Of a stretch of DNA of 64,000 nt, positions 1 to 12,003 are shown in pieces. Below the pieces are notes generated by a model. It searched no databases. It worked only from the letters and a program-made list of their open reading frames with translations, and had not been told where the DNA came from. This DNA is from Candidatus Aminicenantes bacterium (GTDB lineage Bacteria > Acidobacteriota > Aminicenantia > Aminicenantales > Saccharicenantaceae). The stretch is taken from contig JBFYOD010000001.1 of the NCBI GenBank assembly GCA_041303965.1, positions 30,552 through 94,551 of the forward strand. Direction: 5' to 3'. The translations under genes and the position numbers were made by a program. How positions within the stretch are numbered: the first letter of the stretch is position 1; each line of letters begins with the position of its first letter.

Positions 1-315
1 GTCGGCAATCTCGTCTGCCCCGCCTCTTATGACCTGGGAGAGGACCTTCGCTTTGTCCTCCTGTCTTCCCCCGAAGGCGATGATAAGCCGGCCAAATACC
101 CGCAGGCCTTCCTATCCGCGGACTGTCTCATCCTGACCAAGGCGGACCTCGTCCCCTATCTGCCGTTCGACCCGGCCAAGGCGGCGGCCGAGGCCTTGTC
201 CATCAAGCCCGGGCTCCGCGTCTTCACGGTCTCCGCCTTGCGCGGCGACGGCGTGGACGCCCTCGTCGGATATCTCGTCGAGGCCCTCGAGGGGCTGAGG
301 TCCGGCCGTGCATGA
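1..315 (+). CDS. hypB: Hydrogenase nickel-incorporation GTPase HypB, C-terminal part (5' end cut by window edge)
   Basis: Frame 1 reads VGNLVCPASYDLGEDLRFVLLSSPEGDDKPAKYP...ILTKADLVPY...VSALRGDGVD without stops, the conserved HypB C-terminus. TGA stop at 313-315. Confidence 0.85.
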   Translation, partial: VGNLVCPASYDLGEDLRFVLLSSPEGDDKPAKYPQAFLSADCLILTKADLVPYLPFDPAKAAAEALSIKPGLRVFTVSALRGDGVDALVGYLVEALEGLRSGRA

Positions 316-661
316 GCTGTCCCTCATCGCCTCCGTCTTCGACGTCCTCGAAGAGAAGGCCCGCGAACACGGCGCTTCACAGGTCACGGCGGTCCGTCTC
401 CAGGTGGGCCGGATGTCCGGGGTCGTCCCCGAACTCCTCGCATCGGCCTTCGACATCTATAAGAAAGGAACGCTGGCCGAAGGCGGCCGGCTCGAGATCG
501 TCATCGTTCCGGTCAAGCTCCGCTGCCCCGACTGTGGCGGCGCGAGCGTCCGCGAAGACACCGATTTCTCCTGCGCCATCTGCGGTTCGAGGCGGGTCGA
601 GATCGTGGAGGGGCAAGACATCGTCGTCGAGAAAATCGAGCTCGAGACCGGCCAAACGTGA
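308..661 (+). CDS. hypA: Hydrogenase nickel insertion protein HypA
   Basis: 117 aa with MHELSL N-terminus and a CPDCGG...CAICGS zinc-ribbon motif. GTG start overlaps the hypB stop by 8 nt. Confidence 0.9.
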   Translation: MHELSLIASVFDVLEEKAREHGASQVTAVRLQVGRMSGVVPELLASAFDIYKKGTLAEGGRLEIVIVPVKLRCPDCGGASVREDTDFSCAICGSRRVEIVEGQDIVVEKIELETGQT

Positions 662-687
662 CCCGTGGCCGTTCGGCCTCGCGCCTA

Positions 688-717
688 TTGACAAAGCCGA
701 AAACGTTCTGCTATAAA
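688..717 (+). promoter_or_regulatory. Candidate sigma70-type promoter of the redox operon (TTGACA, 18 nt, TATAAA)
   Basis: TTGACA at 688-693 and TATAAA at 712-717, in an AT-richer stretch after hypA. Confidence 0.35.
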
Positions 718-972
718 TGCCATCTTGTTGTTTGATTATTGAGTCTCCCGGCAAAGCCGTTAAGGAGTTTTTTATTTTTATAGACTATATTCGCCCGTCC
801 CTGAGGCCGGCAGCCGACCGAAGCACCGCCGATCTGGACGGCCTCGAATTGCAGGCCCTTGGGGATGCCGCCTCCTTCCTGCCCGTCTTCCAAAGGGCCG
901 CTCCACCATACCGGCCGAACCCGACTCACCGACTTCCGCCCGCACCGCAAACCCCCATATTGGAGGGATGAT

Positions 973-1512
973 TTGGACATCGATGAAACCAAAGTCCGAA
1001 ACCTGATCGATAAGCATCAGGGGCTCAAGAAGAACCTGATCGCCATCCTACTGGACATCCAGGAGCTTTTCAACTACCTCCCTCCGGATTCTCTCCGCCA
1101 GGTCGCCGGGGCGCTCTGCATCCCCCTGAGCGACGTCCTGGGCGTGGCCACGTTCTACCGGGCTTTCAGCCTGAAGCCCCGGGGCAAGCACATCTGTCTC
1201 GTCTGCCTCGGGACGGCCTGCCATGTCCGGGGCGGCCAGAGACTCCTGGAGGAGATCGAGCGGAAGCTCGACGTCCCGGCCGGGGAGAACACCAAGGACG
1301 GCCAGTTCACGTTGGAGACGGCCGCCTGTCTCGGGTGCTGCGCCATCGGGCCCGTCGTCGTCGTTGACGGCGAGTACCACGGCCACGCCACGATCAAGAG
1401 GGTCGGCCCGATCCTCGGCAAGTACAGCAGACCGAAGCCGTCGGGAAAACGGCGGAAGGCCGCCGCCAGGCCCGCCTCCGGAAAGAGGGCGCGGGCCGCC
1501 GGGAAGAAATGA
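973..1512 (+). CDS. NuoE/HydC/HoxE-like thioredoxin-fold [2Fe-2S] subunit
   Basis: LLDIQELFNYLP...ATFYRAFSLKPRGKHICLVCLGTACHVRG...CLGCCAIGPVVVVDG matches NADH dehydrogenase 24-kDa subunit motifs. The ORF is open from 859. I prefer TTG at 973, preceded by GGAGGG (start uncertain). Confidence 0.8.
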   Translation: MDIDETKVRNLIDKHQGLKKNLIAILLDIQELFNYLPPDSLRQVAGALCIPLSDVLGVATFYRAFSLKPRGKHICLVCLGTACHVRGGQRLLEEIERKLDVPAGENTKDGQFTLETAACLGCCAIGPVVVVDGEYHGHATIKRVGPILGKYSRPKPSGKRRKAAARPASGKRARAAGKK

Positions 1513-1531
1513 CAGAAAGAGAGGGAATCTG

Positions 1532-1924
1532 ATGGCCGCGAAAAAGAAGCTCAGCATCCAGGATTTGGCCAAGATCCGGGAAAAAACCAAATCCCTCATG
1601 ACCATCCGGGAAGGCGAGGGCCGGGCCCGGGTCACCGTCCACATGGGCACCTGCGGCATCGCCGCCGGCGCCCGCGACATCATGGACGCCCTCCTCGCCG
1701 AGATCGCCAAGGCCAAGGTCCAGGACGTCATCGTCACGACCTCCGGCTGCGCCGGGCTGTGCAACGCCGAACCCATGGCCACGATCGAGCTCAAGGGCCA
1801 GCCCCCCGTGAAGTACGGAGATCTCACGGCGGAGAAGATGAGGAAGATCGTCGCCCAGCACATCCTGGGCGGGAAGATGGTGACCGAATACGTCCTGGGC
1901 GTCGGAAGCGAAACGATGTACTGA
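1532..1924 (+). CDS. HndB-like thioredoxin-fold [2Fe-2S] ferredoxin subunit
   Basis: MAAKKKLSIQDLAKIRE...VTVHMGTCGIAAGA...TSGCAGLCNAEPM, as in HndB/HydB N-terminal-type small subunits. ATG at 1532 lies inside the longer 1223..1924 ORF. Confidence 0.8.
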   Translation: MAAKKKLSIQDLAKIREKTKSLMTIREGEGRARVTVHMGTCGIAAGARDIMDALLAEIAKAKVQDVIVTTSGCAGLCNAEPMATIELKGQPPVKYGDLTAEKMRKIVAQHILGGKMVTEYVLGVGSETMY

Positions 1925-1934
1925 GGGAGGCCCC

Positions 1935-4900
1935 TTGAAACAATATCGAGCTCACTTATTGGTCTGCGCCGGCACGGGCTGTGTGTCCAGCGGGTCCTTC
2001 AAGATCAAGGAGGCCCTGGAGAAGGAGATCCGGAAGCGGCGTCTCCAGGACGAGGTCCAGGTCGTCGCGACGGGCTGCAACGGATTCTGCGAGAGGGGCC
2101 CGATCGTCATGGTCCAGCCCGACGGCATCTTCTACCAGCTCCTCAAGGTCGAAGACGTCCCCCGCCTGGTCGAGGAGCACCTGCTCAAGGGCCGCCCGGT
2201 CAAGAAGCTGATGTACGTCCCCCCGGCCGAGGACAAGCCGGTCCCGAAGATGAAGGACATCGAGTTCTTCAAGCACCAGCGGCTGATCGTCCTGCGGAAC
2301 CGGGGCCGGATCGACCCGGAGAAGATCGACGAGTACATCGCCTTCGACGGCTACGAGGCGCTGGGCAAGGCCCTGTCCAAGATGACGCCCGACGACATCC
2401 TCGAAGAGGTCTCAGCCTCGGGGCTGCGGGGCCGGGGCGGCGCCGGCTTCCCCACGGGCAAGAAGTGGGCCGTATGCGCCAAAGGCAAGAGGACGCCGAA
2501 ATACATCATCTGCAACGGCGACGAAGGGGACCCGGGCGCCTTCATGGACCGCTCGGTCCTCGAGGCGGATCCCCACGCGGTCATCGAGGGGATGATCATC
2601 GGGGCCAAGGCCATCGGCGCCGCGAAGGGGTTCATCTACATCCGGCACGAATACCCGCTGGCCATCAAGCGCGTCGAGATCGCCATCCAGCAGGCCCGGG
2701 AATACGGGCTGCTCGGCAAGGACATCCTGGGCAAGGGATTCGATTTCGAGCTCGAGATCGTCCAGGGCGCGGGCGCGTTCGTCTCCGGAGAGGAGACCGC
2801 CCTGATCGCGTCCGTCGAGGGCAAGATCGCCATGCCCCGCCAGAGGCCGCCCTTCCCCGCCCACAAGGGCCTCTGGGGGTCGCCGACGGTCATCAACAAC
2901 GTCGAGACGTGGGCGACCGTCGCCAACATCATCCGGCGCGGCGCGAAGTGGTACTCGGGCCTGGGGACGGACACGAGCAAGGGGACGAAGATCTTCTCGC
3001 TCGTCGGCAAGATCAACAACACGGGCCTCGTCGAGGTCCCGATGGGCATCTCCCTCCGCGAGATCATTTTCGGCATCGGCGGCGGCGTCCCCGGCGGAAG
3101 GGCCTTCAAGGCCGTCCAGATCGGCGGGCCCTCGGGGGGATGCATCCCAGCCAAGCTCCTGGACCTGCCCGTCGACTACGAGAGCCTGACGGGCGCGGGC
3201 GCCATGATGGGCTCCGGCGGCATGATCGTCATGGACGACAAGACCTGCATGGTCGACATCGCCAAGTACTTCCTCAACTTCCTCCGCGACGAGTCCTGCG
3301 GAAAATGCATCTCCTGCCGCGAGGGGACCCAGAGGATGTGGGAGCTCGTCAGCAAGATCACGGACGGACAGGGGACGCTCGAGGACATCAGCCTCCTCGA
3401 GGAGCTGGCGATCGCCGTCAAGGACGCCTCCCTCTGCGGACTGGGACAGACGGCGGCCAATCCCGTCCTGTCCACCCTGCGCTATTTCCGCGCGGAATAC
3501 GAGAAGCACGTCGTCGACAAAAGATGCCCGGCCATGGTCTGCAAGGAGATCGTCTCCGCGCCCTGCCAGTACATCTGCCCCATCGACCAGGAGGCGTCCA
3601 GTTACATCGGGCTCATCGCCCAGAAGAAGTACGAGGAGGCCTTCAAGGTCATCCGCAAGGACAACCCCCTGCCGTCGGTCTGCGGCCGGGTCTGCAGCCG
3701 GGCCTGCGAATCGGTCTGCCGGGCCGGCGAAGCCGGCGAGCCCATCGCCATCCGGGCCCTGAAGCGATTCGTCCTCGATTGGGCCCGGGAGAAGGGCCTG
3801 CCTGCCCCGGCGAGGTTCCCCGTCACGAAGGCAGAGAAGATCGCCATCATCGGCGCCGGGCCGGCCGGTCTGGCGGCCGGCTACGAGCTGGTCAAGAAGG
3901 GCTATCCCGTCAGGGTCTTCGAGTCCCTGCCCGTCGCCGGCGGCATGCTCCGGGTGACCATCCCCGACCACCGCCTGCCCAAGGAGCGTCTCCAGGACGA
4001 CCTCGACTACCTCGTCGGCTGCGGGCTGAACATCAAGACCAACATGACCCTGGGCAAGGATTTCACCTTGGACGACCTCTTCCAACAGGGATACAAGGCC
4101 GTCTTCCTGGCCACGGGCGCCCACAAGCCCCTGGAGATGGGCGTCCCCGGGGAGGAGGCCGAAGGCGTTCTCCAGGCCCTGGAGTACCTCAAGGACCACC
4201 ACCTCGGCATCCCCGTCTCTCTCGGCGCCCGGGTCGTGGTCATCGGCGGCGGCAATTCGGCCGTCGACGCCGCCCGCGTCGCCTTCCGCGACAAGCGGGT
4301 CAAGCAGGCGACGATCCTCTACCGCCGGACGCGGAAAGAGATGCCGGCCTATCCCGAGGAGGTCGAGGCCGGCCTCGAAGAGGGCGTCAAGATCGAGTAT
4401 CTCGTCGCCCCGGTCCGCATCCGCATCAAGGACGGCAGGGTCGTCGGCGTCGAATGCATCCGCATGAAGCTCGGCGAAAAGGACGCCAGCGGCCGGGCCA
4501 GGCCCGTGCCGATCCCGGGTTCAGAATTCCAGGTCCCGGCCGACACCCTGATCCTGGCCATCAGCGAGCGGGCCTACACGCCGTACCTCAAGGACAGCGA
4601 CGGCCTGACGCTCTCCCCGGAATGGGGCACGATCATCGTCGACCCGGCCAGCATGGCCACGACCCGCCCGGGAGTCTTCGCCGGCGGCGACGTCGTCTCG
4701 GGCCCAAGCAGCGTCGTCGAGGCGATGGCGGCCGGCAAGACGGCCGCCAGGGCCATCGAGTGCTACCTCGAAGGCCGTAGCCTGGTCTGTCCGCACGAAG
4801 TGACCCGGCCCTCCGTCTACGTGGAGCCGGTCAAGCTGACGGAAGAGGAGGCCCGGAACACGAAGAGAGCCAAGATGCCTCATCTCCCTCTGGGGAAGAG

Positions 4901-5027
4901 GAAATCGGGGCACGAGGAGATCGAACTGGGCTTCACCAGGGAACTCGCCCTGAAGGAGGCCCGGCGTTGCCTGCGCTGCGAGCTCGAAACGCGCGACGCC
5001 AAAAAAGCGATAGGACGTGAAAAATGA
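1935..5027 (+). CDS. NuoF/HydB-like FMN-FeS subunit fused to a GltD/NfnB-like FAD/NAD(P)H oxidoreductase (1030 aa)
   Basis: N-terminal 2Fe-2S thioredoxin-like region (LLVCAGTGC...CNGFCERGP). NuoF motifs GLRGRGGAGFPTGKKW, CNGDEGDPGAFMDR, ESCGKCISCREG. Then GltD motifs [50 protein letters not shown] start after GGGAGG. Confidence 0.9.
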   Translation: MKQYRAHLLVCAGTGCVSSGSFKIKEALEKEIRKRRLQDEVQVVATGCNGFCERGPIVMVQPDGIFYQLLKVEDVPRLVEEHLLKGRPVKKLMYVPPAEDKPVPKMKDIEFFKHQRLIVLRNRGRIDPEKIDEYIAFDGYEALGKALSKMTPDDILEEVSASGLRGRGGAGFPTGKKWAVCAKGKRTPKYIICNGDEGDPGAFMDRSVLEADPHAVIEGMIIGAKAIGAAKGFIYIRHEYPLAIKRVEIAIQQAREYGLLGKDILGKGFDFELEIVQGAGAFVSGEETALIASVEGKIAMPRQRPPFPAHKGLWGSPTVINNVETWATVANIIRRGAKWYSGLGTDTSKGTKIFSLVGKINNTGLVEVPMGISLREIIFGIGGGVPGGRAFKAVQIGGPSGGCIPAKLLDLPVDYESLTGAGAMMGSGGMIVMDDKTCMVDIAKYFLNFLRDESCGKCISCREGTQRMWELVSKITDGQGTLEDISLLEELAIAVKDASLCGLGQTAANPVLSTLRYFRAEYEKHVVDKRCPAMVCKEIVSAPCQYICPIDQEASSYIGLIAQKKYEEAFKVIRKDNPLPSVCGRVCSRACESVCRAGEAGEPIAIRALKRFVLDWAREKGLPAPARFPVTKAEKIAIIGAGPAGLAAGYELVKKGYPVRVFESLPVAGGMLRVTIPDHRLPKERLQDDLDYLVGCGLNIKTNMTLGKDFTLDDLFQQGYKAVFLATGAHKPLEMGVPGEEAEGVLQALEYLKDHHLGIPVSLGARVVVIGGGNSAVDAARVAFRDKRVKQATILYRRTRKEMPAYPEEVEAGLEEGVKIEYLVAPVRIRIKDGRVVGVECIRMKLGEKDASGRARPVPIPGSEFQVPADTLILAISERAYTPYLKDSDGLTLSPEWGTIIVDPASMATTRPGVFAGGDVVSGPSSVVEAMAAGKTAARAIECYLEGRSLVCPHEVTRPSVYVEPVKLTEEEARNTKRAKMPHLPLGKRKSGHEEIELGFTRELALKEARRCLRCELETRDAKKAIGREK

Positions 5028-5704
5028 TAGAGTTCATCCTCAACGGTTTACCGGTCAAGGCCGAGGAGGGCTGGACGGTCCTCGAGACGGCCAAGTTCTA
5101 CGGCCTGGAGATCCCGACCCTCTGCCACCATGAGGGGCTGACGGAGTTCGGCGGCTGCCGCCTCTGTCTGGTCGAGATCGGAACCCCTCCCAAGTCGAAG
5201 CTGGTGACGTCCTGCACCTACCCCGCCGAAGAGGGTCTCGTCGTCCGGACCGACTCCACCAGGGTCTGGGCGGCGCGGCGGATGATGATCGAGCTCATGC
5301 TTTCCGTCGCGCCTGGCTCCAAGGTCCTCCAGGACCTGGCCTCGAAGTTCGGCGTCACCAAGGTCCGGTTCACGCCCCGCAACGAGGAGTGCATTCTCTG
5401 CGGCCTGTGCGTGAGGATGTGCGCGGAGCAGATGGATGCGCGGGCCATCGGCTTCCAGCAGCGGGGCCACAAGAGGAAGATCTCGACGCCGTTCGACATC
5501 CGGTCGGAAGAGTGCCGGCTGTGCGGCGCCTGCATGTACATCTGCCCCGCCTGCCAGCTCCGCTGCCAGGGCCCTAACGCGGAGACCACCCTCTGCAACG
5601 CCTGCCTGACCATGGACCCTTCCTGCTTGGAGCATTATGAGGACCTCCAGTGCTGGATGTACGACGCGGGCCGCTGCGGCACGTGCGTCCGGGAAAAGAC
5701 CTGA
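5024..5704 (+). CDS. HydA/NuoG N-terminal-type FeS protein (2Fe-2S plus two 4Fe-4S motifs), no catalytic domain
   Basis: IEFILNG...PTLCHHEGLTEFGGCRLCLVEIG...SC (2Fe-2S), then ECILCGLCVRMC and ECRLCGACMYICPAC ferredoxin motifs and a Cys-rich tail. ATGA overlap with the upstream gene. Confidence 0.85.
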   Translation: MIEFILNGLPVKAEEGWTVLETAKFYGLEIPTLCHHEGLTEFGGCRLCLVEIGTPPKSKLVTSCTYPAEEGLVVRTDSTRVWAARRMMIELMLSVAPGSKVLQDLASKFGVTKVRFTPRNEECILCGLCVRMCAEQMDARAIGFQQRGHKRKISTPFDIRSEECRLCGACMYICPACQLRCQGPNAETTLCNACLTMDPSCLEHYEDLQCWMYDAGRCGTCVREKT

Positions 5705-5763
5705 CCGGGTTTGAAACATGAACCCAAGGAATAAAACCTAAAGGATATCGAGGAGGTAATTTC

Positions 5764-7347
5764 ATGCCGACTTTGACAAAGCTCAACAGAAGCGCCGCCA
5801 CCCTGACCAAGAACCGGACGGAGGGTTCGATCAGCCCCTTCAGCGGGATGTGCGTGACCTGCGTCGACGGCTGCATCGGGATGTGCGAGATCGGGAAATC
5901 CGCCTACCGCGGGGCCGAGGTCCTCTACCCCCAGCCGTTCGGGATCATCACGGCGGGCTGCGAGAAGGACTATCCCGTCGACCTGTCCCACTTCAGCATC
6001 ATGGGGACGGCCAAAGGGGCCTGGGGCGTGCCCGCCGACAGCGACCAGGCGACCTTCGAGAAAGTCTCCGTCGAGACGAAGATCGGCGTCAAGAAGGACC
6101 TCAAGCTCAAGGTCCCGTTCATCATCTCCGGCATGGGATCGACCAACGTCGCCCTGCAGAACTGGGCGGGCCTCGGCGGCGGCGCGGCCATCGCCGGGAC
6201 CATCCTGACGATCGGCGAGAACGTCTGCGGCATGGACGACAAGACGGAGCTCAAGAACGGGCGCGTCGTCCGCTCCCCGGACATGGAGTTCCGCATCAAG
6301 TCCTTCCGCGACTGGCAGGACGGTTATGGCGACGTCGTCGTCCAGGCCAACGTCGAGGACACGCGGCTGGGCGTCCAGGAATACGCCATCGAAAAGCTGG
6401 GCATCGAGACAGTTGAACTCAAGTGGGGCCAGGGGGCCAAGGACATCGGCGGCGAGGTCAAGATCAAGAGCATTAAGAAGGCCCAAGCCCTTAAGAAAAA
6501 GGGCTACATCGTCCTGCCCGACCCCGAAGACCCCAACGTCATCGCCGCCTTCGAGAAGGGCAGCTTCAAGGAATTCGAACGTCATTCCCGCCTGGGGATG
6601 GTTGAGGAAGACAGCTTCATGAAGCGGGTCGAAGAGCTGCGCAAGCTCGGCGCCAAGCGCGTCTTCCTGAAGACGGGCGCCTACCGGCCGGCCGATCTGG
6701 CCCGGGCCGTCAAGTACGCCTCCAAGGCCAAGCTCGACCTGCTGACCGTCGACGGCGCGGGCGGCGGCACGGGCATGAGCCCCTGGCGGATGATGAACGA
6801 ATGGGGCATTCCGACCGTCGAAATCTGGTCCCTCACCTGGAAGTTCGCCGACCAGCTGGCCAAGCAGAAAGAGTTCGTGCCCGACCTGGCCTTCGGCGGC
6901 GGGATCACTTTCGAGGACCAGATCTTCAAGGTCCTCTCCCTCGGCGCGCCCTACGTCAAGGCCGTCGGCATGGCCCGTTCGCCCCTGGCCGCGGCCATGG
7001 TCGGCAAGACGATCGGCGGCCGCATCAACGACGGCCAGATCCCGGTCTACGTCGAGCGCTTCGGCAGCAGCAAGGACGAGATCTTCGTCACCGCCCCCGA
7101 GCTGCGGCGGCGCTTCGGCGCCCGGTTCGACGAGCTCCCGGCCGGGGCCATCGGCGTCTACACCTATTTCAAGCGGCTGAGCCAGGGCCTCCGCCAGATG
7201 ATGGCCGGCGAGCGCAAGTTCTCGCTCGAGTACGTCACCCGCGACGACATCGCCTCCCTCACCAAGGAAGCGGCCGACATCAGCGGCATCCCCTACATCA
7301 CGGACGTCGACAAGGAAGAAGTCCAGAAGATCCTCAAGGCGAAATAG
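5764..7347 (+). CDS. Glutamate synthase-related FMN-domain protein (stand-alone GltB domain-2-like)
   Basis: 527 aa with an N-terminal CVTCVDGCIGMC motif, then ...PFIISGMGSTN...TVELKWGQGAKDIGGEVKI...LLTVDGAGGGTGMSP..., typical of the Glu_synthase FMN barrel. GAGGAGG RBS. Confidence 0.85.
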   Translation: MPTLTKLNRSAATLTKNRTEGSISPFSGMCVTCVDGCIGMCEIGKSAYRGAEVLYPQPFGIITAGCEKDYPVDLSHFSIMGTAKGAWGVPADSDQATFEKVSVETKIGVKKDLKLKVPFIISGMGSTNVALQNWAGLGGGAAIAGTILTIGENVCGMDDKTELKNGRVVRSPDMEFRIKSFRDWQDGYGDVVVQANVEDTRLGVQEYAIEKLGIETVELKWGQGAKDIGGEVKIKSIKKAQALKKKGYIVLPDPEDPNVIAAFEKGSFKEFERHSRLGMVEEDSFMKRVEELRKLGAKRVFLKTGAYRPADLARAVKYASKAKLDLLTVDGAGGGTGMSPWRMMNEWGIPTVEIWSLTWKFADQLAKQKEFVPDLAFGGGITFEDQIFKVLSLGAPYVKAVGMARSPLAAAMVGKTIGGRINDGQIPVYVERFGSSKDEIFVTAPELRRRFGARFDELPAGAIGVYTYFKRLSQGLRQMMAGERKFSLEYVTRDDIASLTKEAADISGIPYITDVDKEEVQKILKAK

Positions 7348-7375
7348 GCGTTTCGACCAATTGAATTGCCTCCTG

Positions 7376-7412
7376 CAGGGGGACGAGCCTGGGCTCGTCC
7401 CCCTGTTTTTTT
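7376..7412 (+). terminator. Rho-independent terminator of the redox operon
   Basis: Perfect 13-bp GC-rich stem CAGGGGGACGAGC / GCTCGTCCCCCTG, 4-nt loop, then T7. Confidence 0.75.
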
Positions 7413-7496
7413 ATCCCCACTAAGATATTTCCTGGGATTGCGGCTTCGAGTCGCTCCGCCGCAATCCCATCGGTCGCTTCCAAGAGTCCGCTCTCT

Positions 7497-7520
7497 GCCG
7501 GTCCCCTCCGGCTTTTTTTT
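7497..7520 (+). terminator. Second, weaker terminator-like hairpin with T8 tract
   Basis: GCCGG tcccct CCGGC followed by TTTTTTTT. Confidence 0.4.
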
Positions 7521-7580
7521 ATCGTCCGTTCCGGATATAATGAAGACATCCTCGGAATTCCGGCGCGGCGGGAGGTCCCG

Positions 7581-7934
7581 ATGATCGTGCTCAAGGACGT
7601 TCTGGCCCTACTCAAAGGCGAGCTTTTGACCCCGGGCAGCCCTCTCGAGGTCGCCTTTCCGAAGATCTTCGCTTCCGATCTGATGAGCGACGTCCTGACC
7701 TCGGCCGAACCCGGCTCCCTCCTCTTGACGGGCCTGGCGAATCCCCACGTCGTCTGCACCTGCTCCGTCGCTGACCTGGCGGCGGTCGTATTCGTCCAGG
7801 GGAAACGGCCGGGACCCGATGTCATCGACCAAGCCCGGTTGAAAAGCTTGCCCCTCATCGCCACGAAAATGCCGATGTTCGAAGCCTGCTCCCTGCTTGC
7901 GCTCTTCTTTAAGGACGGTCCCCATGGCCACTGA
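7581..7934 (+). CDS. DRTGG-like domain protein (hfs-type sensory cluster, gene 1)
   Basis: 117 aa, ...FASDLMSDVLTSAEPGSLLLTGLANPHVV...LPLIATKMPMFEA. GGAGG RBS 5 nt upstream. Paralogous to 9635..9976. Confidence 0.7.
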   Translation: MIVLKDVLALLKGELLTPGSPLEVAFPKIFASDLMSDVLTSAEPGSLLLTGLANPHVVCTCSVADLAAVVFVQGKRPGPDVIDQARLKSLPLIATKMPMFEACSLLALFFKDGPHGH

Positions 7935-8367
7935 GGACGTCTACCGCCAGGAGTTCCCCGTCAAGGGCGGCGATTTCGCCAAGGCGGGGAGCGTCGCCTG
8001 CCGGATCAAGGAGCTCCTGAAGGATCTCGGCCTCGACGCCAAGATCATCCGCCGCGCGGCCATCGCCGCCTACGAGGCGGAGATGAACGTCATCATGTAT
8101 GCCTGGCAAGGCCGGATGGACCTGGCCGTTTCCACTCAGGAGGTCCGCATCACCGTCGACGACAAGGGCCCGGGCATCGTCGATATCGAGTTGGCCATGA
8201 CCGAAGGGTATTCGACGGCGACCCCGGAAATGCGGGAACTCGGCTTCGGCGCGGGCATGGGCCTGCCGAACATCAAGCGGAACTCCGACGTCTTCCATAT
8301 CGATTCCCAAACGGGCCAGGGGACACGCCTGGAGATCATTATCCTGACGAACGGACACAAGCCATGA
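7924..8367 (+). CDS. Stand-alone HATPase_c protein (anti-sigma-factor/Ser-kinase-like ATPase)
   Basis: ...AIAAYEAEMNVIMYA...ITVDDKGPGIVD...GFGAGMGLPNIKRNSD...GTRLEIII. N, G1 and G2 boxes are present and there is no His-phosphoacceptor domain. Overlaps the upstream gene by 11 nt. Confidence 0.75.
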   Translation: MATEDVYRQEFPVKGGDFAKAGSVACRIKELLKDLGLDAKIIRRAAIAAYEAEMNVIMYAWQGRMDLAVSTQEVRITVDDKGPGIVDIELAMTEGYSTATPEMRELGFGAGMGLPNIKRNSDVFHIDSQTGQGTRLEIIILTNGHKP

Positions 8368-9638
8368 AAGAGAAGAATTACCACGCCATCCACATCACCA
8401 AGGACAAATGCATCGGCTGCGTTCACTGCCTAAGCGCCTGCCCGACCAAGGCCATCCGGATCAAGGACGGCAAGGCGCAGATCATCGACGAGCTGTGCAT
8501 CGACTGCGGCGAGTGCCTGCGCGTCTGCCCCTACGATGCCGTCCATTCCCACACGACGTCATTCGCGACTCTCGATCACTTCGAATACAAAGTGGCCATA
8601 CCGTCGACCGTGCTTTACGGGCAGTTCGGCGCCGCCAATCTGCCTACCGAAATCCTGTCCGCCCTGCGCCGGGTCGGCTTCAACGAGGTTTACGACCTCA
8701 GCTCGATCTGCGAGCTCAACTGCGCCGCCGTCGAGGAATACCTCAACGAACATCCCCGGCCCCGGCCTTTCATCACCGCCACCTGTCCGGTCGTCGTCCG
8801 TCTCATCCAAGGGCGCTACCCCGCACTCTGCGGCCAGATCCTCCCGATCGAGCCGCCGCGGGAGATCGCGGCCAAGATCCTCCGAACGATCCTGCCCAAG
8901 GCGCTGAACATCCCCCCCGAGAAGATCGGCATCATCCACATCACGCCCTGCTCGGCCAAGATGGTGTCCATCAACAGTCCGGCGACTCTGAACAAATCCT
9001 ACCTCGATGGGGCGATTTCGATCCGGGACATCTACCCCCAGATCCTCAACGCCCTCCGGAAGAGCCAGGAGGACGCTCTCATGCGCCACCTCTTCCCGGA
9101 AACACAGTTTAGCGGAATCGGCATGGGCTGGTCCCTCTCCGGCGGGGAGACCCGGGGGCTCAAAAACCACCGGGCCGTGGCTGTCTCCGGCATCCAGGAC
9201 ACCATGCGCGTCCTCGACCAGGTCGAAGCCGGCCTCCTCCAGGATATCGACCTACTGGAGTGCACGGTTTGCCCGGATGGGTGCGTGGGCGGACCGCTCG
9301 AGGTGGAAAATCGTTTCCTGGCCAAGAGCCGGATCCTGCAGCTCGTCGCCGCCGCGGGGGAACGCGCGGTCGTCGATCCCAAGGACGTCAGCCGGCTTTA
9401 TCACAAGAATTTCCTGTCCTTCGATCACCCCGTGTCGCCCGTCGAATCCCGGCCCCTCGACCGCGATCCGGGCAAGGCTATCCGCAAGGCCAAGCGCCGG
9501 GAGAAGATCTTCGCCGACTTGCCGCGCAAGGACTGCGGGGTCTGCGGGGCACCGGACTGCCGGACGCTGGCCGACGACGTCGTCCGCGGATTGGCGCATG
9601 TCGACGACTGCCCGTTTGTCAAGAAGGAGAAGCCATGA
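8364..9638 (+). CDS. [FeFe]-hydrogenase-like (Fe_hyd_lg_C-type) protein with N-terminal 2x[4Fe-4S] and C-terminal CX2CX4CX16C FeS domain. Putative sensory, non-catalytic.
   Basis: CIGCVHCLSACP and CIDCGECLRVCP ferredoxin motifs. H-cluster motif equivalents TATCP, TPCSAK, ECTVCPDGCVGG. C-terminal CGVCGAPDCRTL...DDCP. ATGA overlap with the upstream gene. Confidence 0.85.
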   Translation: MKEKNYHAIHITKDKCIGCVHCLSACPTKAIRIKDGKAQIIDELCIDCGECLRVCPYDAVHSHTTSFATLDHFEYKVAIPSTVLYGQFGAANLPTEILSALRRVGFNEVYDLSSICELNCAAVEEYLNEHPRPRPFITATCPVVVRLIQGRYPALCGQILPIEPPREIAAKILRTILPKALNIPPEKIGIIHITPCSAKMVSINSPATLNKSYLDGAISIRDIYPQILNALRKSQEDALMRHLFPETQFSGIGMGWSLSGGETRGLKNHRAVAVSGIQDTMRVLDQVEAGLLQDIDLLECTVCPDGCVGGPLEVENRFLAKSRILQLVAAAGERAVVDPKDVSRLYHKNFLSFDHPVSPVESRPLDRDPGKAIRKAKRREKIFADLPRKDCGVCGAPDCRTLADDVVRGLAHVDDCPFVKKEKP

Positions 9639-9976
9639 CACTGTCCGACCTGGCGGCACGCCTCGATCTCAAGGTCTACACGGCGGGTACCCCGCTCGAG
9701 CGGCCCGTCCTCGGCGGGTACGCGAGCGACCTCCTCAGCGATGTCATCGGCCATGGCCGCAAGGACGACCTCTGGGTCACCATGCAGATCCACCCGAACA
9801 TCGTCGCCGTGGCCGTCCTCAAGGAACTGGCCGGGATCGTCCTCGTCAACGGCCGGGAACCGGCAACCGAAACCCTCCTGCAGGCCGAAAAGGAGGGCGT
9901 GCCCGTTCTCGGCACCCGGCTCGGCGCGTTCGAGCTCACGGGCAGGCTCTACGGGCTGGGGGTCAAGGGGAGTTGA
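9635..9976 (+). CDS. DRTGG-like domain protein (second copy)
   Basis: ...GGYASDLLSDVIGHGRKDDLWVTMQIHPNIVAVAVL...VPVLGTRLGAFELTG. ATGA overlap with the upstream gene. Confidence 0.7.
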   Translation: MTLSDLAARLDLKVYTAGTPLERPVLGGYASDLLSDVIGHGRKDDLWVTMQIHPNIVAVAVLKELAGIVLVNGREPATETLLQAEKEGVPVLGTRLGAFELTGRLYGLGVKGS

Positions 9977-10722
9977 TGGAGCTCCGGCGTATCCGGGCCG
10001 ACCTCCACATCCACACTTGCCTCTCGCCGTGCGGGGAGCTAGCCATGTCTCCGCGCGCGGTCGTCGAACGGGCCCGGTCGGCCGGGCTGGATCTCATCGC
10101 CGTAACCGACCACAACACGACGGAGAACGCCGCCGCCGTCATCGAGGCGGCCCGGGGCACGGAACTGGCCGTCCTGCCCGGGATCGAGTTGACAACCGCC
10201 GAGGAAGTTCACATCCTCGGGCTCTTCGATCCCGGGGCCGATCTCGGCCCCTTCCAGGCGGCTGTCTATCGGAACCTCCCGGACGTCCCGTCGAAGAAAA
10301 AATTCGTCAAGGACCAGGTCCTCGTCGACGCCGAGGATTACGTCACCGGGTTCAGCCCGCGGTGCCTCTTCGGGGCGACGCTTTATTCCGTCCACGACGC
10401 CGTCGGTCTCATCCACGGTCATGGCGGTCTGGCCATCGCCTGCCACATCGACCGGGAGTCTTTCAGCATCGTCTCCCAGCTCGGCTTCATCCCACCTGGC
10501 CTCGGTCTCGAGGCCGTCGAGGTCTCGCCCCGCCTGACCGTCGCCGAGGCCCGGAAGGCGCTTGGCCCGTTCGACCCGCTGCCCATGGTCCGTTTCTCGG
10601 ACGCCCATCAGCCGGAAGAGATCGGTTGCGCCACGACCGATTTTCTCGTCGCTTCGCCGACCCTCGGGGAGATCCGAAAGGCCCTGGCAGGAGAGGGCGG
10701 CAGGAGGGTCATCTCGTCATGA
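9976..10722 (+). CDS. PHP-domain metal-dependent phosphoesterase
   Basis: MELRRIRADLHIHTCLSPCGE...LIAVTDHNT...GIELTTAEEVHILGLF...ACHIDR...FSDAH, the PHP His/Asp motifs. 1-nt overlap with the upstream stop. Confidence 0.8.
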   Translation: MELRRIRADLHIHTCLSPCGELAMSPRAVVERARSAGLDLIAVTDHNTTENAAAVIEAARGTELAVLPGIELTTAEEVHILGLFDPGADLGPFQAAVYRNLPDVPSKKKFVKDQVLVDAEDYVTGFSPRCLFGATLYSVHDAVGLIHGHGGLAIACHIDRESFSIVSQLGFIPPGLGLEAVEVSPRLTVAEARKALGPFDPLPMVRFSDAHQPEEIGCATTDFLVASPTLGEIRKALAGEGGRRVISS

Positions 10723-11249
10723 TGGAGGACCTTTCTCTTCACATCCTCGACATCGCCGAGAACGCGATCGCCGCCGGCGCGACCCGGGTCCTCATCGCCG
10801 TCAACGAGAACGAGAAGCGCGACATCCTGGCGTTCCGGGTGACGGACAACGGCCGGGGCATGTCGCGGGAAGAGAAGGCCCGGGCCTTCGACCCGTTCTT
10901 CACCACCAAGAGGAAAAGGACGGGCCTCGGCCTCCCCCTTCTCGCCCAGACGGCTGAGGTCTGCGGCGGCCGCGTTATCATCGAATCCGTCCCGCGGAAA
11001 GGGACAAGGATCACGGCGCGCTTCCGCTTCGGCCACATCGACAGGCCGCCGCTCTCGAAAATGGCCGAGACGATGATGATGCTCTTCTTCGGCCACGCCG
11101 AGGTCGAATTCCGTTACCAGCACACCCGTAACAGATTGATATTCAGCTATTTCCGTAGAGCCCTTGACGGCCGGGCCGCCGCGTCCACCGAGATCTCCGC
11201 GCTCCGGGATTCGCTCCGGGCCGGCTTGAAGAGGATAGGCGTCAGCTGA
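10719..11249 (+). CDS. Stand-alone HATPase_c ATP-binding protein (second copy)
   Basis: HILDIAENAIAAGA...FRVTDNGRGMS...DPFFTTKRKRTGLGLPLLAQ...GTRITARF. ATGA overlap with the PHP gene. Confidence 0.75.
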   Translation: MMEDLSLHILDIAENAIAAGATRVLIAVNENEKRDILAFRVTDNGRGMSREEKARAFDPFFTTKRKRTGLGLPLLAQTAEVCGGRVIIESVPRKGTRITARFRFGHIDRPPLSKMAETMMMLFFGHAEVEFRYQHTRNRLIFSYFRRALDGRAAASTEISALRDSLRAGLKRIGVS

Positions 11250-12003
11250 TCTCGCCGGTGAGGTAGGCCCGGGTCCGCGGGTCTTGGGGATTGGCGAAGA
11301 CCTCGGCCGCTGGCCCGTGCTCGACGAGTTCCCCCAAATAAAGGAAGGCCAGGTAATCGGCCACGCGCCGGGCCTGGCGCAGGATGTGGGTGACGACGAC
11401 CACAGTGTATTCCTGCTTGAGCTCTATCAGCCGCCGCTCGACATTTTGGCTCGACTGGGGATCGAGGGCCGAGGTCGGCTCGTCGCCGAGGATGATCTCA
11501 GGCTCGACGGCGAGGCCCCGGGCCAGGCAGAGGCGCTGCTGTTGCCCGACCGAAAGGCTTGAGGCGGGTTCGCGGAGCCGGTCCTTCACTTCGTCCCAGA
11601 GCCCGGCGACCTTGAGGTAGTGTTCGACCCTCCGGTCCAGGCCCTTCTTCGACTTGAGCCCGTGGATCTTCGGTCCGTAGGCGACGTTCTCGTAGATCGA
11701 CATCGGCAGGACCTGGGGCTTTTGGGAGAGCAGGCCCATCTTTTTTCGGATCCGGGTGACCTCGGTCCGGGGGGCATAGATATTCTCGCCGTCGAGAACG
11801 ACCTCACCCTGGACGCGCACGCCCTCGGCCGTGTCCAGGAGCCGGTTGAGCGATTTGAGGAGCGTCGTCTTGCCGCAGCCCGACGGTCCGATGATGACCG
11901 TGATCTTCTTCGCCGGGATGTCCAGGTTGATGTTCTTGAGGACCTGGAGGTCGCCGTAGAAGACGCTCAGGTCCCGGATGCTGATGGGCGTCTGCCCGTT
12001 CAT
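11242..12003 (-). CDS. pstB: Phosphate ABC transporter ATP-binding protein PstB
   Basis: 253 aa with GPSGCGKTTLLK (Walker A), LSVGQQQRLCLAR signature and ILGDEPTSALD (Walker B), in PstB-typical context. Confidence 0.95.
   Translation of the reverse strand: MNGQTPISIRDLSVFYGDLQVLKNINLDIPAKKITVIIGPSGCGKTTLLKSLNRLLDTAEGVRVQGEVVLDGENIYAPRTEVTRIRKKMGLLSQKPQVLPMSIYENVAYGPKIHGLKSKKGLDRRVEHYLKVAGLWDEVKDRLREPASSLSVGQQQRLCLARGLAVEPEIILGDEPTSALDPQSSQNVERRLIELKQEYTVVVVTHILRQARRVADYLAFLYLGELVEHGPAAEVFANPQDPRTRAYLTGEIS

Follow-up and report, generated by a model that had tools for sequence, protein, structure and literature searches.

Several described systems resemble the operon reported here in part. 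Bfu enzymes of type 2 consist of a BfuABC core with extra catalytic subunits, and the third substrates of known Bfu enzymes are of mid or low potential. In Stn/NfnABC, the large NuoG/Fdh-like A subunit contains an inserted GltD-like domain, and the B subunit of NfnABC retains the ferredoxin site in a C-terminal 2x[4Fe-4S] domain. The F420-dependent glutamate synthase FGltS is predicted and unproven in the literature; the published proposal assumes a glutamine-dependent reaction. A hybrid [FeFe]/[NiFe] hydrogenase of Thermoplasmatota contains a HydB::GltA-domain fusion, whose GltA-domain was tentatively taken for a ferredoxin site (Greening et al. 2024). The present operon type combines the NADH/FeS core known from electron-bifurcating enzymes with a reduced relative of glutamate synthase, and the complex probably ties glutamate/nitrogen metabolism to cellular redox carriers. 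No description of it was found in the Bfu survey or in the other papers of our literature search.

The analyzed window was a stretch of 64,000 nt from Candidatus Aminicenantes (GCA_041303965.1, contig JBFYOD010000001.1, 30,552-94,551, forward strand). Five plus-strand ORFs, g1-g5, with gaps of 19, 10, -4, and 59 nt, were read from the sequence (Table 1); they matched exactly the five co-directional genes of the first-pass annotation, whose domain calls (NuoE, HndB-like, NuoF::GltD, HydA N-terminal, and GltB FMN) were upheld by Pfam profiles. The start codon of g1 was TTG, in frame inside the ORF 859-1512, with a GGAGGG ribosome-binding site at 962-967. The sigma70-like promoter and the strong terminator (given as 7376-7412) of that annotation were also present. 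Both promoter hexamers were kept in three related loci (L024, L002, and L027), and the promoter was missed by our scanner only because the latter demands T at the last base of the second hexamer. The leader element folded weakly (z-score 0.22) and had no match in Rfam.

Table 1. Features of the g1-g5 operon and its surroundings (positions within the window).
Feature	Position	Strand	Evidence
hypA-like gene	308-661		
Sigma70-type promoter: TTGACA 688-693, 18-nt spacer, TATAAA 712-717	688-717	+	sequence reading
Conserved leader element: weak hairpin CUCCCGGC...GCCG..GGAG, then U-run	743-800	+	near-invariant in 4 related loci
g1, NuoE/HydC/BfuC-like [2Fe-2S] subunit, basic C-terminal tail	973-1512	+	PF01257, 151 bits
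g2, HndB-like small [2Fe-2S] protein, optional subunit	1532-1924	+	PF01257, 25.8 bits
g3 N-terminal part, HydB/BfuB-type NuoF	1935-3557	+	Pfam domains; PDB match 7t2r_B
g3 NuoF part: N-terminal 2Fe-2S	1947-2177	+	
g3 NuoF part: FMN/NADH domain	2409-2924	+	
g3 NuoF part: [4Fe-4S] domain	3255-3509	+	
g3 C-terminal part, GltD/NfnL-like module	3531-5027	+	Pfam domains; PDB matches; E. coli GltD identity
g3 GltD part: Fer4_20, 2x[4Fe-4S]	3531-3797	+	
g3 GltD part: Pyr_redox_2, FAD/NADPH	3837-4736	+	
g4, small type-2 BfuA (HydA/NuoG N-terminal)	5024-5704	+	Fer2_4 + 4Fe-4S dicluster; PDB match 9mqx_A
g5, glutaminase-less GltS-type FMN TIM-barrel subunit	5764-7347	+	PF01645, 62.8 bits
g5 N-terminal Cys4 site	5851-5886	+	
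g5 QGAK motif	6430-6441	+	
g5 DGAGGGTG	6751-6774	+	
Intrinsic terminator closing the operon	7375-7412	+	14-bp stem 7375-7406, 10 GC pairs, T7 tail
[FeFe]-hydrogenase-like H-cluster-domain gene, 424 aa	8364-9638		PF02906, 93.6 bits

Genes for BfuA and NuoF were located directly upstream of a g5-like gene in 97 of the 99 related loci with at least 5 kb of upstream DNA, spread over more than 15 bacterial phyla as well as ANME-1, Methanoperedens, and Thermoplasmatota; hundreds of uncultured anaerobes, bacterial and archaeal, carry the cluster. In the best 80 loci, bacterial and archaeal, g5 identity was 66-93%; paralogues at 59% or less were stand-alone or extra copies. A genome survey for recurrence had been set beforehand as a refutation test of the five-gene unit: the set proved to be conserved as a unit, with four rather than five constant members. 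As judged from these loci, the core consists of the NuoE, NuoF, small type-2 BfuA, and GltB-like genes; neither g2 nor the GltD module is obligatory. Of the 56 loci from the first scan whose upstream DNA reached 5 kb or more, 9 had the HndB-like g2 at an identity of at least 55%. The synteny strongly supports what the first-pass annotation had inferred from one transcription unit, namely that g1-g5 would encode an uncharacterized pyridine-nucleotide-coupled, Bfu-related, GltB-type oxidoreductase.

The nearest NCBIfam models of g1 were HoxE/NuoE, and its Cys78/83/119/123 were kept in all 49 sequences. The g4 product (226 aa), with Fer2_4 and 4Fe-4S dicluster domains in Pfam, carries [2Fe-2S] and 2x[4Fe-4S] sites without a His-ligated cluster, followed by a family-specific C-terminal tail with eight cysteines (5552-5686); 20 cysteines of g4 were kept in 54-58 of 58 sequences. 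Its best PDB match was 9mqx_A (E 8.7e-37), a NuoG-like chain of 247 aa, presumably from the Wor-Bfu structure, as assigned via a PNAS 2025 paper.

The g3 ORF (1935-5027) encodes a fusion of 1030 aa with N-terminal 2Fe-2S thioredoxin-like, Complex1_51K, SLBB, NADH_4Fe-4S, Fer4_20, and Pyr_redox_2 domains (Pfam), the hinge motif H..KRCPAMVCK in its NuoF part, and CLRC at the C-terminus. A frameshift artefact was ruled out, as a single ORF of at least 950 aa was found in 34 related loci. The N-terminal half matched every solved bifurcating B subunit in the PDB search, best of all NiFe-Bfu HydB (7t2r_B, E 2.5e-235, residues 3-564, about 560 aligned), and Cys455/458/461/501/531/536 were kept in 35 of 35 sequences. 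Right after the conserved KRCPAxVC hinge, g3 turns into the GltD module, which was 36% identical to E. coli GltD and had its best PDB matches in the NfnL-like domains of 9bov_A, 9n5u_A, and 8oh5_C. A NuoF-only variant (L003) has a Fer4 dicluster at residues 545-595 instead. The GltD module stands in for the ferredoxin-binding 2x[4Fe-4S] domain of HydB-type NuoF. The swap was present in about two-thirds of the loci, including the window (64 of the 97 with Bfu genes; 33 lacked the fusion), and both variants alternate among close relatives: L024, the closest (g5 identity 93%), is devoid of the GltD module. Since GltD replaces the NuoF domain where NfnABC binds ferredoxin, g3 of the window has probably lost the canonical ferredoxin site, and the complex probably uses NADPH at that position instead.

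Our preferred reading, held tentatively, is that g1-g5 constitute a new type of Bfu-type, energy-coupled 2-oxoglutarate/glutamate oxidoreductase using NADH and NADPH. Co-transcription is no proof of a complex, and the complex is putative; we infer a single soluble flavin/FeS assembly of the Bfu (HydABC-type) family with g5 as the third-substrate subunit. The entry point of NADH would be the FMN in the NuoF part of g3, and the clusters of g3 together with the [2Fe-2S] of g1 would form the Bfu core; electrons would then pass via the [2Fe-2S] and two [4Fe-4S] clusters of g4, possibly also metal sites of its 8-Cys tail, and the N-terminal Cys4 cluster of g5 to the g5 FMN. The latter would reduce a 2-oxo/imino acid; the likeliest reaction is the formation of glutamate from 2-oxoglutarate + NH3 (as 2-iminoglutarate), which might also run in reverse. 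The use of free NH3 is an assumption. The second nucleotide site would be the GltD/NfnL-type FAD module, and because it occupies the position of the ferredoxin domain, NADP(H) would replace ferredoxin as the low-potential partner. The predicted reaction for the window is 2 NADH + NADP+ + 2-oxoglutarate + NH4+ <-> 2 NAD+ + NADPH + glutamate, with ferredoxin in place of NADP+ in the sister (NuoF-only) variant; the uphill branch would be driven by the exergonic reduction at g5. Given E0' values of about -140 mV for 2-oxoglutarate + NH4+/glutamate, -320 mV for NADH, and -420 to -500 mV for ferredoxin, the bifurcating stoichiometry would be near equilibrium. NADH as the bifurcating donor to a high-potential acceptor would be without precedent in the Bfu family, which counts against this reading.

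The g5 product corresponds to the FMN domain of glutamate synthase, distantly related yet colinear: residues 92-481 match 812-1152 of E. coli GltB, hhalign gave E 3.8e-5, and PF01645 was the sole Pfam family matched (cut-off 20.4 bits). The claim that both halves of glutamate synthase were present goes too far, because the GltB half is reduced to this remotely related domain. C30/33/37/41, Q223, K226, G229, G230, and E231 were kept in 73 of 73 sequences, and the QGAK...GG, R/K246, DGxGGTG, and GG motifs were 100% conserved; an invariant Glu is found where GltB has Gln after the GG of the QGAK loop, a difference that speaks against the glutamate reading. The roles that we assign to positions of the QGAK active-site motif are assumed from GltS structures; the GltS residue that we take to be E903 did not map onto g5. 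No GltB-type amidotransferase, GXGXG domain, or FdhF-like gene was found in the window, as the first-pass annotation had said of glutaminase and formate dehydrogenase. The glutamine-dependent GOGAT reaction was excluded, since no related locus contained an amidotransferase or ammonia-channel domain; amidotransferase genes were absent beside g5 and P0219 alike, in contrast to the FGltS proposal. In P0219, an FrhB-like domain is fused to one resembling g5 (39% identity, with the Cys4 region included); its gene is adjoined by two ELFV-type (GDH-like) dehydrogenase genes and a LarA-like gene (hydroxy-acid racemase family).

It is somewhat unlikely, though conceivable, that the same complex acts on another g5 substrate, a 2-oxo/2-hydroxy acid or an imine (2-oxoglutarate/2-hydroxyglutarate, pyruvate/lactate, or glyoxylate/glycolate), as a Bfu-type counterpart to the confurcating lactate dehydrogenase-Etf system. 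In Foldseek, the AF2 model of g5 (pLDDT 84) had its best E-values with flavocytochrome b2, glycolate oxidase, and lactate oxidase/monooxygenase (2.5e-10 to 1e-8; glutamate synthase, 1.4e-8), and this lead of the alpha-hydroxy-acid oxidases tells against the glutamate reading; the highest query-normalized TM-score, 0.49, belonged to glutamate synthase. The PF01070 (FMN_dh) match and the LarA-like neighbour of P0219, the lack of an ammonia-delivering domain, and a neighbouring GDH able to provide 2-oxoglutarate also fit another substrate. Against it, only PF01645 exceeded the Pfam threshold for g5, the GltS-specific loop and DGxGGTG motif are invariant, and no 2-hydroxyglutarate-pathway genes occurred among the conserved neighbours. 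GDH was the commonest neighbour family, on either side of the cluster, and both GDH and GS genes flank it in Thermoplasmatota; GDH or type I GS was nearby in only 23 of 83 well-flanked loci (28%), a share which also weighs against the glutamate reading. A sigma54 NtrC-type regulator was nearby in 16 of these 83, and the glutamine synthetase and regulator neighbours indicate nitrogen assimilation.

A dual-donor glutamate synthase without bifurcation, in which NADH (NuoF) and NADPH (GltD) feed g5 linearly and uncoupled, is unlikely. GltD to FeS to FMN is the usual linear route of NADPH-GltS, the ferredoxin-binding domain is absent from g3 of the window, and reduction of 2-oxoglutarate + NH3 is exergonic with NADH or NADPH alone. 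However, the whole Bfu core is kept (NuoE-like subunit, N-terminal 2Fe-2S domain, and hinge), close to proven bifurcating B subunits; alternation of GltD and ferredoxin domains at one position suggests a coupled third partner, not a redundant input; and the NADPH module is wholly missing from one-third of the loci.

It is improbable that the operon encodes two separate enzymes, with g1-g4 as a Stn/Nfn-like transhydrogenase and g5 as a GltB-like enzyme that works independently with ferredoxin, even though g1-g4 hold every NfnABC cofactor module, g5 paralogues of about 50% identity are found on their own, and g5 is preceded by a strong ribosome-binding site of its own in the 59-nt gap. The GltD-less third of loci would then be BfuABC without a third-substrate site, yet g5 is always adjacent; the ferredoxin domain required by Nfn is missing whenever GltD is present; the conserved 8-Cys tail of g4 has no other evident partner; and gene order is the same in bacteria and archaea.

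The window's own lineage has hydrogen-related neighbours rather than GDH or GS, which likewise tells against the glutamate reading. The first-pass statement that the window lacks a hydrogenase H-domain was wrong (PF02906 gene, Table 1). That gene retains the H-cluster Cys ligands and is probably sensory/regulatory rather than catalytic for g1-g5. It is very improbable that g1-g4 serve the FeFe-like protein or an upstream NiFe hydrogenase with g5 as an accessory, as this gene, the hypA-like gene, and the NiFe large subunit (PF00374) upstream in L024 (homologous ORFs in L001 and L002) might suggest, because the FeFe-like gene lies past two terminators inside a DRTGG/HATPase regulatory cassette, lacks the proton-relay Cys (motif TATCP), and is present beside the cluster in only 6 of the first 80 loci, and NiFe genes occur in the closest relatives only.

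The proposed energy-coupled oxidoreductase resembles Bfu type 2 in its NuoE-like C subunit, its HydB-type B subunit with N-terminal 2Fe-2S, FMN, and [4Fe-4S], its small A subunit, and the placement of the third-substrate site on a separate subunit. It departs from Bfu type 2 in that the role of this separate subunit falls to a GltS-type FMN protein, a kind that does not appear among the Bfu partners listed, in that the ferredoxin-like B3/B4 domain of the window's B subunit has given way to the GltD/NfnL module, and in that g4 carries the additional 8-Cys tail. With NfnABC/Stn it shares NuoE, NuoF, and a FAD-NADPH domain of the NfnL/GltD kind that carries two [4Fe-4S]; the C-terminal half of g3 has its nearest match in the NfnL-like domain of NfnA/StnC. 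The earlier likening to Stn (NuoE, NuoF, and NfnB) held for the modules and failed for the placement of GltD, which is on the C-terminus of B (NuoF) here versus the NuoG-like subunit there, and the small A and the fifth, catalytic FMN subunit differ as well. As in bacterial NADPH-GltBD, a GltD-type NADPH/FAD/2x[4Fe-4S] input is present, as is an FMN TIM-barrel that is colinear with the FMN domain of GltB and contains QGAK, DGGTGA, and GG motifs; however, g5 is devoid of the Ntn-amidotransferase, central, and GXGXG domains and has an N-terminal Cys4 site instead of the [3Fe-4S] cysteines of GltB, E. coli GltB gave no BLAST-level (tblastn) match to it, and the inputs are separated from the FMN subunit by a NuoEF/BfuA module. 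The putative FGltS of methanogens and ANME likewise couples a GltS-type catalytic unit to a dedicated non-GltD electron-input module, which is an F420H2 dehydrogenase there and the Bfu core here. The Thermoplasmatota HydB::GltA fusion similarly combines a NuoF-type diaphorase with a glutamate-synthase small-subunit-like domain in a Bfu-type complex; its partner is a hydrogenase, whereas that of g3 is a GltS-like FMN subunit.

The operon consisted of five ORFs on the + strand (g1–g5) within positions 973–7347, with spacings of 19, 10, −4, and 59 nt. The domain assignments made in the first-pass annotation (NuoE-like g1, HndB-like g2, NuoF::GltD fusion g3, small HydA/NuoG-type g4, and GltB-like g5) were each borne out by Pfam and NCBIfam.

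Coordinates of the operon genes, their signals, and the flanking genes in the window
Feature	Position	Strand	Details
HypA-like nickel-insertion protein	308–661	+	by eye: GTG start, (M)HELSL N-terminus, two CxxC pairs
Promoter	688–717		TTGACA / 18 nt / TATAAA; kept in three related loci
g1	973–1512	+	TTG start, in frame within ORF 859–1512; preceded by GGAGGG
g2	1532–1924	+
g3	1935–5027	+	1030 aa
g4	5024–5704	+
g5	5764–7347	+	preceded by GAGGAGG
Terminator 3' of g5	7375–7412		14-bp GC-rich hairpin with T7 tail
DRTGG protein	7581–7934
Anti-sigma-type HATPase_c_2 protein	7897–8367
[FeFe]-hydrogenase-like protein	8364–9638		424 aa; PF02906, 93.6 bits; N-terminal 4Fe-4S dicluster; C-terminal PF04060
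HATPase_c protein	ends 11249

A leader segment 3' of the promoter (743–800; GTCTCCCGGCAAAGCCGTTAAGGAG followed by TTTTTTATTTTTATAGAC) was almost invariant in four related loci, among which the remainder of the approximately 250-nt leader diverged. This segment contained a weak hairpin with a U-run, the stability of the hairpin being not significant, and may represent an attenuator or operator. No Rfam match was found anywhere in positions 1–12000 of the window, this segment included, and no sigma54 −24/−12 site was found near g1. A second terminator-like hairpin (7497–7512, followed by T8) was located approximately 90 nt past the first terminator, in region 7413–7545; an inverted repeat (approximately 7433–7471) lay between the two hairpins, and a TATAAT sequence (7535–7540) was present upstream of the DRTGG gene. 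This region may encode a small transcript, or the two hairpins may form nothing more than a tandem terminator.

Subunits typical of the HydABC-type electron-bifurcating (Bfu) family were encoded by g1, g3, and g4. The product of g1 was a BfuC, a NuoE/HoxE-like protein with one [2Fe-2S] cluster (PF01257, 151 bits), whose four cysteines were kept in 49/49; g2 encoded a small thioredoxin-like 2Fe-2S protein. The C-terminal tail of g1 was rich in Lys, Arg, Ala, and Gly (KPSGKRRKAAARPASGKRARAAGKK; window 1420–1509, residues approximately 150–179). The NuoE gene was much longer in some phyla (282 aa in locus L065), and in some it was followed by a small Zn-ribbon-like ORF (locus L044, 5584–5991), for which no Pfam match was found. 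BfuA was represented by g4, a HydA/NuoG N-terminal FeS protein of 226 aa (Fer2_4 and dicluster domains); its best PDB match was 9mqx_A, a 247-aa NuoG-like chain of 9MQX, which we take to be a tungsten aldehyde oxidoreductase Bfu complex. The [2Fe-2S] motif and two [4Fe-4S] motifs were present in g4, with 12 ligand cysteines kept in 58/58, and eight extra cysteines in its last 50 residues were kept in 54–58 of 58 sequences. Since the His-ligated cluster motif HxxxCxxCxxxxxC was absent, g4 is a type 2 BfuA, in agreement with the published definition of this type.

From its N-terminus, the fusion protein g3 comprised a 2Fe-2S domain, the FMN and [4Fe-4S] domains of NuoF, and a GltD-type module (Fer4_20 and pyridine-nucleotide-disulfide-oxidoreductase). 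Its residues 3–564 aligned along their whole length with the B subunit of the NiFe-HydABCSL bifurcating hydrogenase (7t2r_B, E 2.5e-235), and its N-terminal half also matched all other solved bifurcating B subunits (HydB, NfnB, StnB, and 9mqx_B). The NuoF-like FMN/NADH site, the adjacent [4Fe-4S] cluster (B1), and the N-terminal [2Fe-2S] domain (B5) of BfuB were thus present. All four N-terminal cysteines were found in the window protein and two of the four varied among relatives; such variation has likewise been reported for Stn, the Sporomusa-type transhydrogenase.

The similarity of g3 to B subunits spanned the H..KRCPAxVC hinge and ended at the start of their 2x[4Fe-4S] ferredoxin-like domain. 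This C-terminal domain of BfuB (B3/B4, the ferredoxin site) was not found in the window; a GltD/NfnL module started after the hinge, at approximately residue 541. A sister variant with NuoF only (locus L003) kept a B3/B4-type domain (Fer4 at residues 545–595); since the GltD-type module replaces the domain seen in this variant, an NADPH/FAD module occupies the ferredoxin docking place in the window. The ferredoxin domain and the NADPH/FAD module are interchangeable at this position of the B subunit, and this natural alternation is a ready-made experiment on the low-potential branch of Bfu enzymes. The structures nearest to the C-terminal half of g3 were the NfnL-like NADPH/FAD domains within NfnA/StnC (9bov_A, 9n5u_A, and 8oh5_C), with the best matches at residues 102–567 of 9bov_A and 105–526 of 9n5u_A, followed by NfnB/NfnL of NfnSL; identity to E. 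coli GltD was 36%. An NfnL-like FAD and NADPH domain with two [4Fe-4S] clusters was present: GxGxxG and GxGxxA were read from the sequence, and Cys544/548/587/591/595/1012/1015 were kept in 35/35.

PF01645 (glutamate synthase conserved region, 62.8 bits) was the sole Pfam family matched by g5, and no NCBIfam model matched it. The g5 family was compact, with 1100 proteins at E ≤ 1e-3 and 183 at E ≤ 1e-30 among 1.84 billion representatives searched. A PDB sequence search with g5 (phmmer, family profile) gave no true match, its hits to de novo TIM-barrels being spurious, and g5 was not detected by tblastn with E. coli GltB as a query. Comparison with the FMN domain of glutamate synthase (GltS) by hhalign gave an E-value of 3.8e-5, and the local alignment was colinear (g5 92–481 with E. 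coli GltB 812–1152). The paired motifs of g5 and GltB were LKWGQGAKDIGGE and IKVAQGAKPGEGGQ, LK.RGY and AKLRY (with a common basic residue), FLKTG and SVKLV, DGAGGGTGMSP and YDGGTGASP, and GGGI..D.IFK...LGA and DGGL..D.IKA..LGA. Judging by these alignments, g5 is homologous to the GltS FMN domain over its full length.

The QGAKPGEGG substrate loop and the DGGTGA and DGG FMN motifs of the GltS TIM-barrel had counterparts in g5 (QGAK-DIGGE, DGAGGGTG, and GGG), which were invariant among 73 g5 sequences. Q223, G224, A225, K226, G229, G230, and E231 were invariant in the 73 family members, and position 246 was Arg or Lys in all of them. Residues Q969, K972, Q978, and R992 presumably line the 2-oxoglutarate/FMN site in the Synechocystis and Azospirillum structures of GltS, and their spacing fits the E. 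coli motif exactly, with an offset of 35. Another GltS residue, E903, did not fit this motif and was dropped. The Gln following GG in GltB was an invariant Glu in g5. The [3Fe-4S] site of GltB (Cx5Cx4C; E. coli C1102/C1108/C1113) aligned with non-Cys residues of g5; an N-terminal site, C30xxC33xxxC37xxxC41, was found in 73/73. Ntn amidotransferase, central, and GXGXG domains were identified by tblastn with E. coli GltB neither in the window nor in 80 loci, and they were also absent from conserved neighbours. A glutamine-dependent reaction, with conversion of glutamine and 2-oxoglutarate to two glutamates, is disfavoured because the glutaminase is missing.

The first AF2 model of g5 was based on a shallow alignment (sequences ≥81% identical) and had a pLDDT of 61.6; its Foldseek result was discarded. 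The second model, built with paralogues (pLDDT 84, pTM 0.86), was an FMN-type TIM barrel. In the Foldseek search with this model, alpha-hydroxy-acid oxidases were at the top by E-value (2.5e-10), and glutamate synthases 1ofd_A and 7mfm_G had the longest alignment and the highest query-normalised TM-scores (0.49 and 0.47). The modelled fold does not separate the two groups; the sequence motifs of g5 favour the GltS subfamily. Another 2-oxo or 2-hydroxy acid as the substrate of g5, a reading consistent with the rank of the oxidases and at odds with the GltS-type motifs, seems rather unlikely; the pair 2-oxoglutarate/glutamate has a slightly better than even chance of being correct.

The five proteins would form one complex, in which NADH would enter at the NuoF FMN of g3 and electrons would pass through the clusters of g4 to the Cys4 cluster and then to the FMN of g5, where glutamate would be formed from 2-oxoglutarate and NH3 or oxidised in the opposite direction. 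Ferredoxin would be replaced as the low-potential third partner by NADP(H), acting at the GltD FAD. The approximate redox potential of 2-oxoglutarate + NH4+/glutamate is −140 mV, that of NADH −320 mV, and that of ferredoxin −420 to −500 mV. From these textbook values, the reaction 2 NADH + Fd(ox) + 2-oxoglutarate + NH4+ <-> 2 NAD+ + Fd(red) + glutamate is near equilibrium. Near-equilibrium stoichiometry is a hallmark of bifurcating systems such as Bcd-Etf and Ldh-Etf, and the NADP+ version of the reaction is likewise feasible at physiological nucleotide ratios. Energy coupling of the reaction is an evenly balanced prospect. A dual-donor glutamate synthase operating without coupling would accommodate both the NuoF and the GltD modules, the retained Bfu core and the alternation of the GltD module with a ferredoxin domain being in favour of coupling; we regard it as unlikely.

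When one-genome-per-species contigs were scanned twice with g5-type queries, hundreds of relatives were revealed; in the first scan, at least 595 were confirmed among the 599 pattern matches listed. In the best 80 loci, g5 was 66–93% identical to the window protein. Their bacterial hosts were Aminicenantes, Zixibacteria, Latescibacterota, KSB1, Planctomycetota (including Scalindua), Ignavibacteria/Bacteroidota, Acidobacteriota, Actinomycetota, Bacillota, Acetothermia, Verrucomicrobiota, and Desulfobacterota, and the archaeal ones were Methanoperedens, Methanophagales (ANME-1), and Thermoplasmatota. No cultured host was present among the best 160 loci, all of which were MAGs. Examples of complete genomes with the cluster are OY970122.1, CP070813.1, CP070674.1, and CP070677.1.

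Gene order was counted in the 99 of 138 non-redundant loci with at least 5 kb upstream. The order NuoE, NuoF::GltD, small BfuA, g5 was found in 64 loci, and the same order without the GltD module in 32; NuoF and BfuA without a detected NuoE occurred in one locus, and the upstream set was missing in two. HndB-like g2 was found in a minority of loci only; thus, the conserved unit consists of four genes, and the window contains its five-gene, GltD-fused version. GltD-fused and GltD-less versions interleaved among close relatives: locus L024 (g5 93% identical) had no GltD module, and L002 (87%) had one. The components conserved in this unit are a Bfu core, a type 2 BfuA extended by a Cys-rich tail, and a GltS-type FMN subunit that has its own Cys4 site. 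Two independent enzymes sharing one operon are very unlikely in view of this conservation, although distant g5 paralogues (31–59% identity) were stand-alone or extra copies; g5 is quite probably the catalytic partner of the Bfu module. The contexts of paralogues P0122, P0124, P0127, and P0132 were stand-alone genes, giving no information on the unit. In locus L063 (2435–9884), a single g5 was preceded by two tandem NuoE-NuoF sets, one with GltD and one without, and two BfuA genes. A second g5 paralogue (50–59% identity) was located beside the cluster in L034 (5021–6598, Methanoperedens) and L046 (4144–5706, Dethiobacter).

When the two ORFs closest to the cluster on either side were scanned, glutamate dehydrogenase (GDH) was the commonest family downstream (9 ORFs) and the second upstream (8 ORFs), after response-regulator receiver domains (10). 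The next commonest neighbours were sigma54 NtrC-type response regulators (8) and glutamine synthetase (GS; 7 in total); the identities of GDH and type I GS were confirmed by NCBIfam. Within 83 well-flanked loci, GDH was found in 15, GS in 11, either of them in 23 (28%), and a sigma54 regulator in 16. Arrangements varied by phylum; in Thermoplasmatota, the cluster was flanked by GDH and GS genes. The cluster is statistically associated with glutamate and nitrogen genes.

Further upstream in L024, a second NuoF-like gene and a gene for the large subunit of a NiFe hydrogenase (PF00374) were found, with homologous ORFs in L001 and L002. Together with the HypA-like gene, they indicate that a Hox-type hydrogenase region precedes the operon in the lineage of the window. 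Past the two terminators, a downstream cassette (7581–11249) encoded DRTGG, anti-sigma-type kinase, [FeFe]-hydrogenase-like, and further HATPase proteins. The presence of the [FeFe]-hydrogenase-like gene contradicts the first-pass statement that the window contains no hydrogenase H-domain. Its product retained the H-cluster Cys ligands, with TATCP in place of TSCCP. Six of the first 80 loci (L002, L012, L024, L026, L028, and L032) had this cassette next to the cluster or, in two cases, inside it; the cassette looks like an H2/redox-sensing regulator. A hydrogenase accessory module, suggested by these flanking genes, was rejected as an explanation of the cluster, the cassette occurring in so few loci. 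The rest of the window was occupied by housekeeping genes. One of them, the carbamoyl-phosphate synthase large-chain ORF (31019–35137, 1372 aa), had its first Pfam ATP-grasp domain from residue 432 and hence either an N-terminal extension of approximately 300 aa or a miscalled start.

Taken together, the explanation combining the complex, the substrate pair, and coupling is tentative, its probability lying somewhat below even. It is doubtful that the cluster represents an unrecognised class of flavin-based bifurcating enzymes, in which NADH would be the donor at the Bfu core and exergonic, ATP-independent reductive amination of 2-oxoglutarate by g5 would drive endergonic reduction of ferredoxin or NADP+. 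In the GltD-fused form of the window, the endergonic branch would be NADP+ reduction; the reverse direction would be glutamate oxidation assisted by ferredoxin or NADPH. If this is true, many uncultured anaerobic bacteria and archaea would have a direct energy coupling of ammonia assimilation or glutamate catabolism. The cluster is carried by at least several hundred species-level genomes, and its hosts include dominant lineages of anoxic sediments and digesters (Aminicenantes, Zixibacteria, Planctomycetota, Ignavibacteria, Thermoplasmatota, and ANME). If the formation or oxidation of glutamate is coupled to NADH, NADPH, or ferredoxin, nitrogen assimilation and amino-acid fermentation in these organisms would have to be costed anew. 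Such coupling would also change the annotation of genes now easily read as 'bifurcating hydrogenase', 'NADH dehydrogenase', or 'glutamate synthase', and would widen the Bfu mechanism, since a high-potential third substrate would be new.

Bfu-type enzymes are central in the anaerobic energy economy, and H2, formate, NADPH, F420, aldehydes, and a small number of other compounds are known as their third substrates; to our knowledge, the family has no described member linked to amino acids or nitrogen. Neither a GltS-type partner nor a cluster of Bfu with GltB-like genes was described in a full-text literature search or in the 2022 survey of the Bfu family; the genome papers that matched mentioned the two together in unrelated contexts. 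A fusion of the NuoF::GltA type has one reported precedent, in a hybrid hydrogenase. The cluster does not belong to the canonical glutamate synthases, lacking the amidotransferase, the GXGXG domain, and the [3Fe-4S] site. All modules of Stn/NfnABC are also present in the cluster; however, that heterotrimer carries its GltD/NfnL-like domain in a large NuoG/Fdh-like A subunit, whereas in the window GltD is fused to NuoF, the 226-aa A subunit has no Fdh-like domain, and there are five genes. The cluster is set apart from Stn by where GltD is placed and by the lack of the ferredoxin domain.

FrhB-linked 'F420-dependent glutamate synthases' are a predicted, unproven group of enzymes. A relative of g5, P0219 (L164, 6001–8403), combined an FrhB-type F420H2 dehydrogenase and a g5-like GltS domain (39% identity) in one 800-aa fusion protein. 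Directly upstream lay a small ferredoxin gene and two genes for ELFV-type (GDH-like) dehydrogenases, and downstream a LarA-like gene; no amidotransferase genes were found beside the fusion. This system has the catalytic domain alone in common with the cluster, no FrhB domain being found in g1–g5, and the fusion indicates that the same catalytic module is wired to differing electron-input modules. With respect to the Bfu family, the core of the window (C, B, and A subunits) is complete except for the ferredoxin domain of the B subunit; the cluster would work like a Bfu type-2 enzyme, with a predicted coupled three-substrate activity. We conclude that it encodes a putative, widespread enzyme of the Bfu family in which the catalytic module is new, as is the replacement of the low-potential partner.
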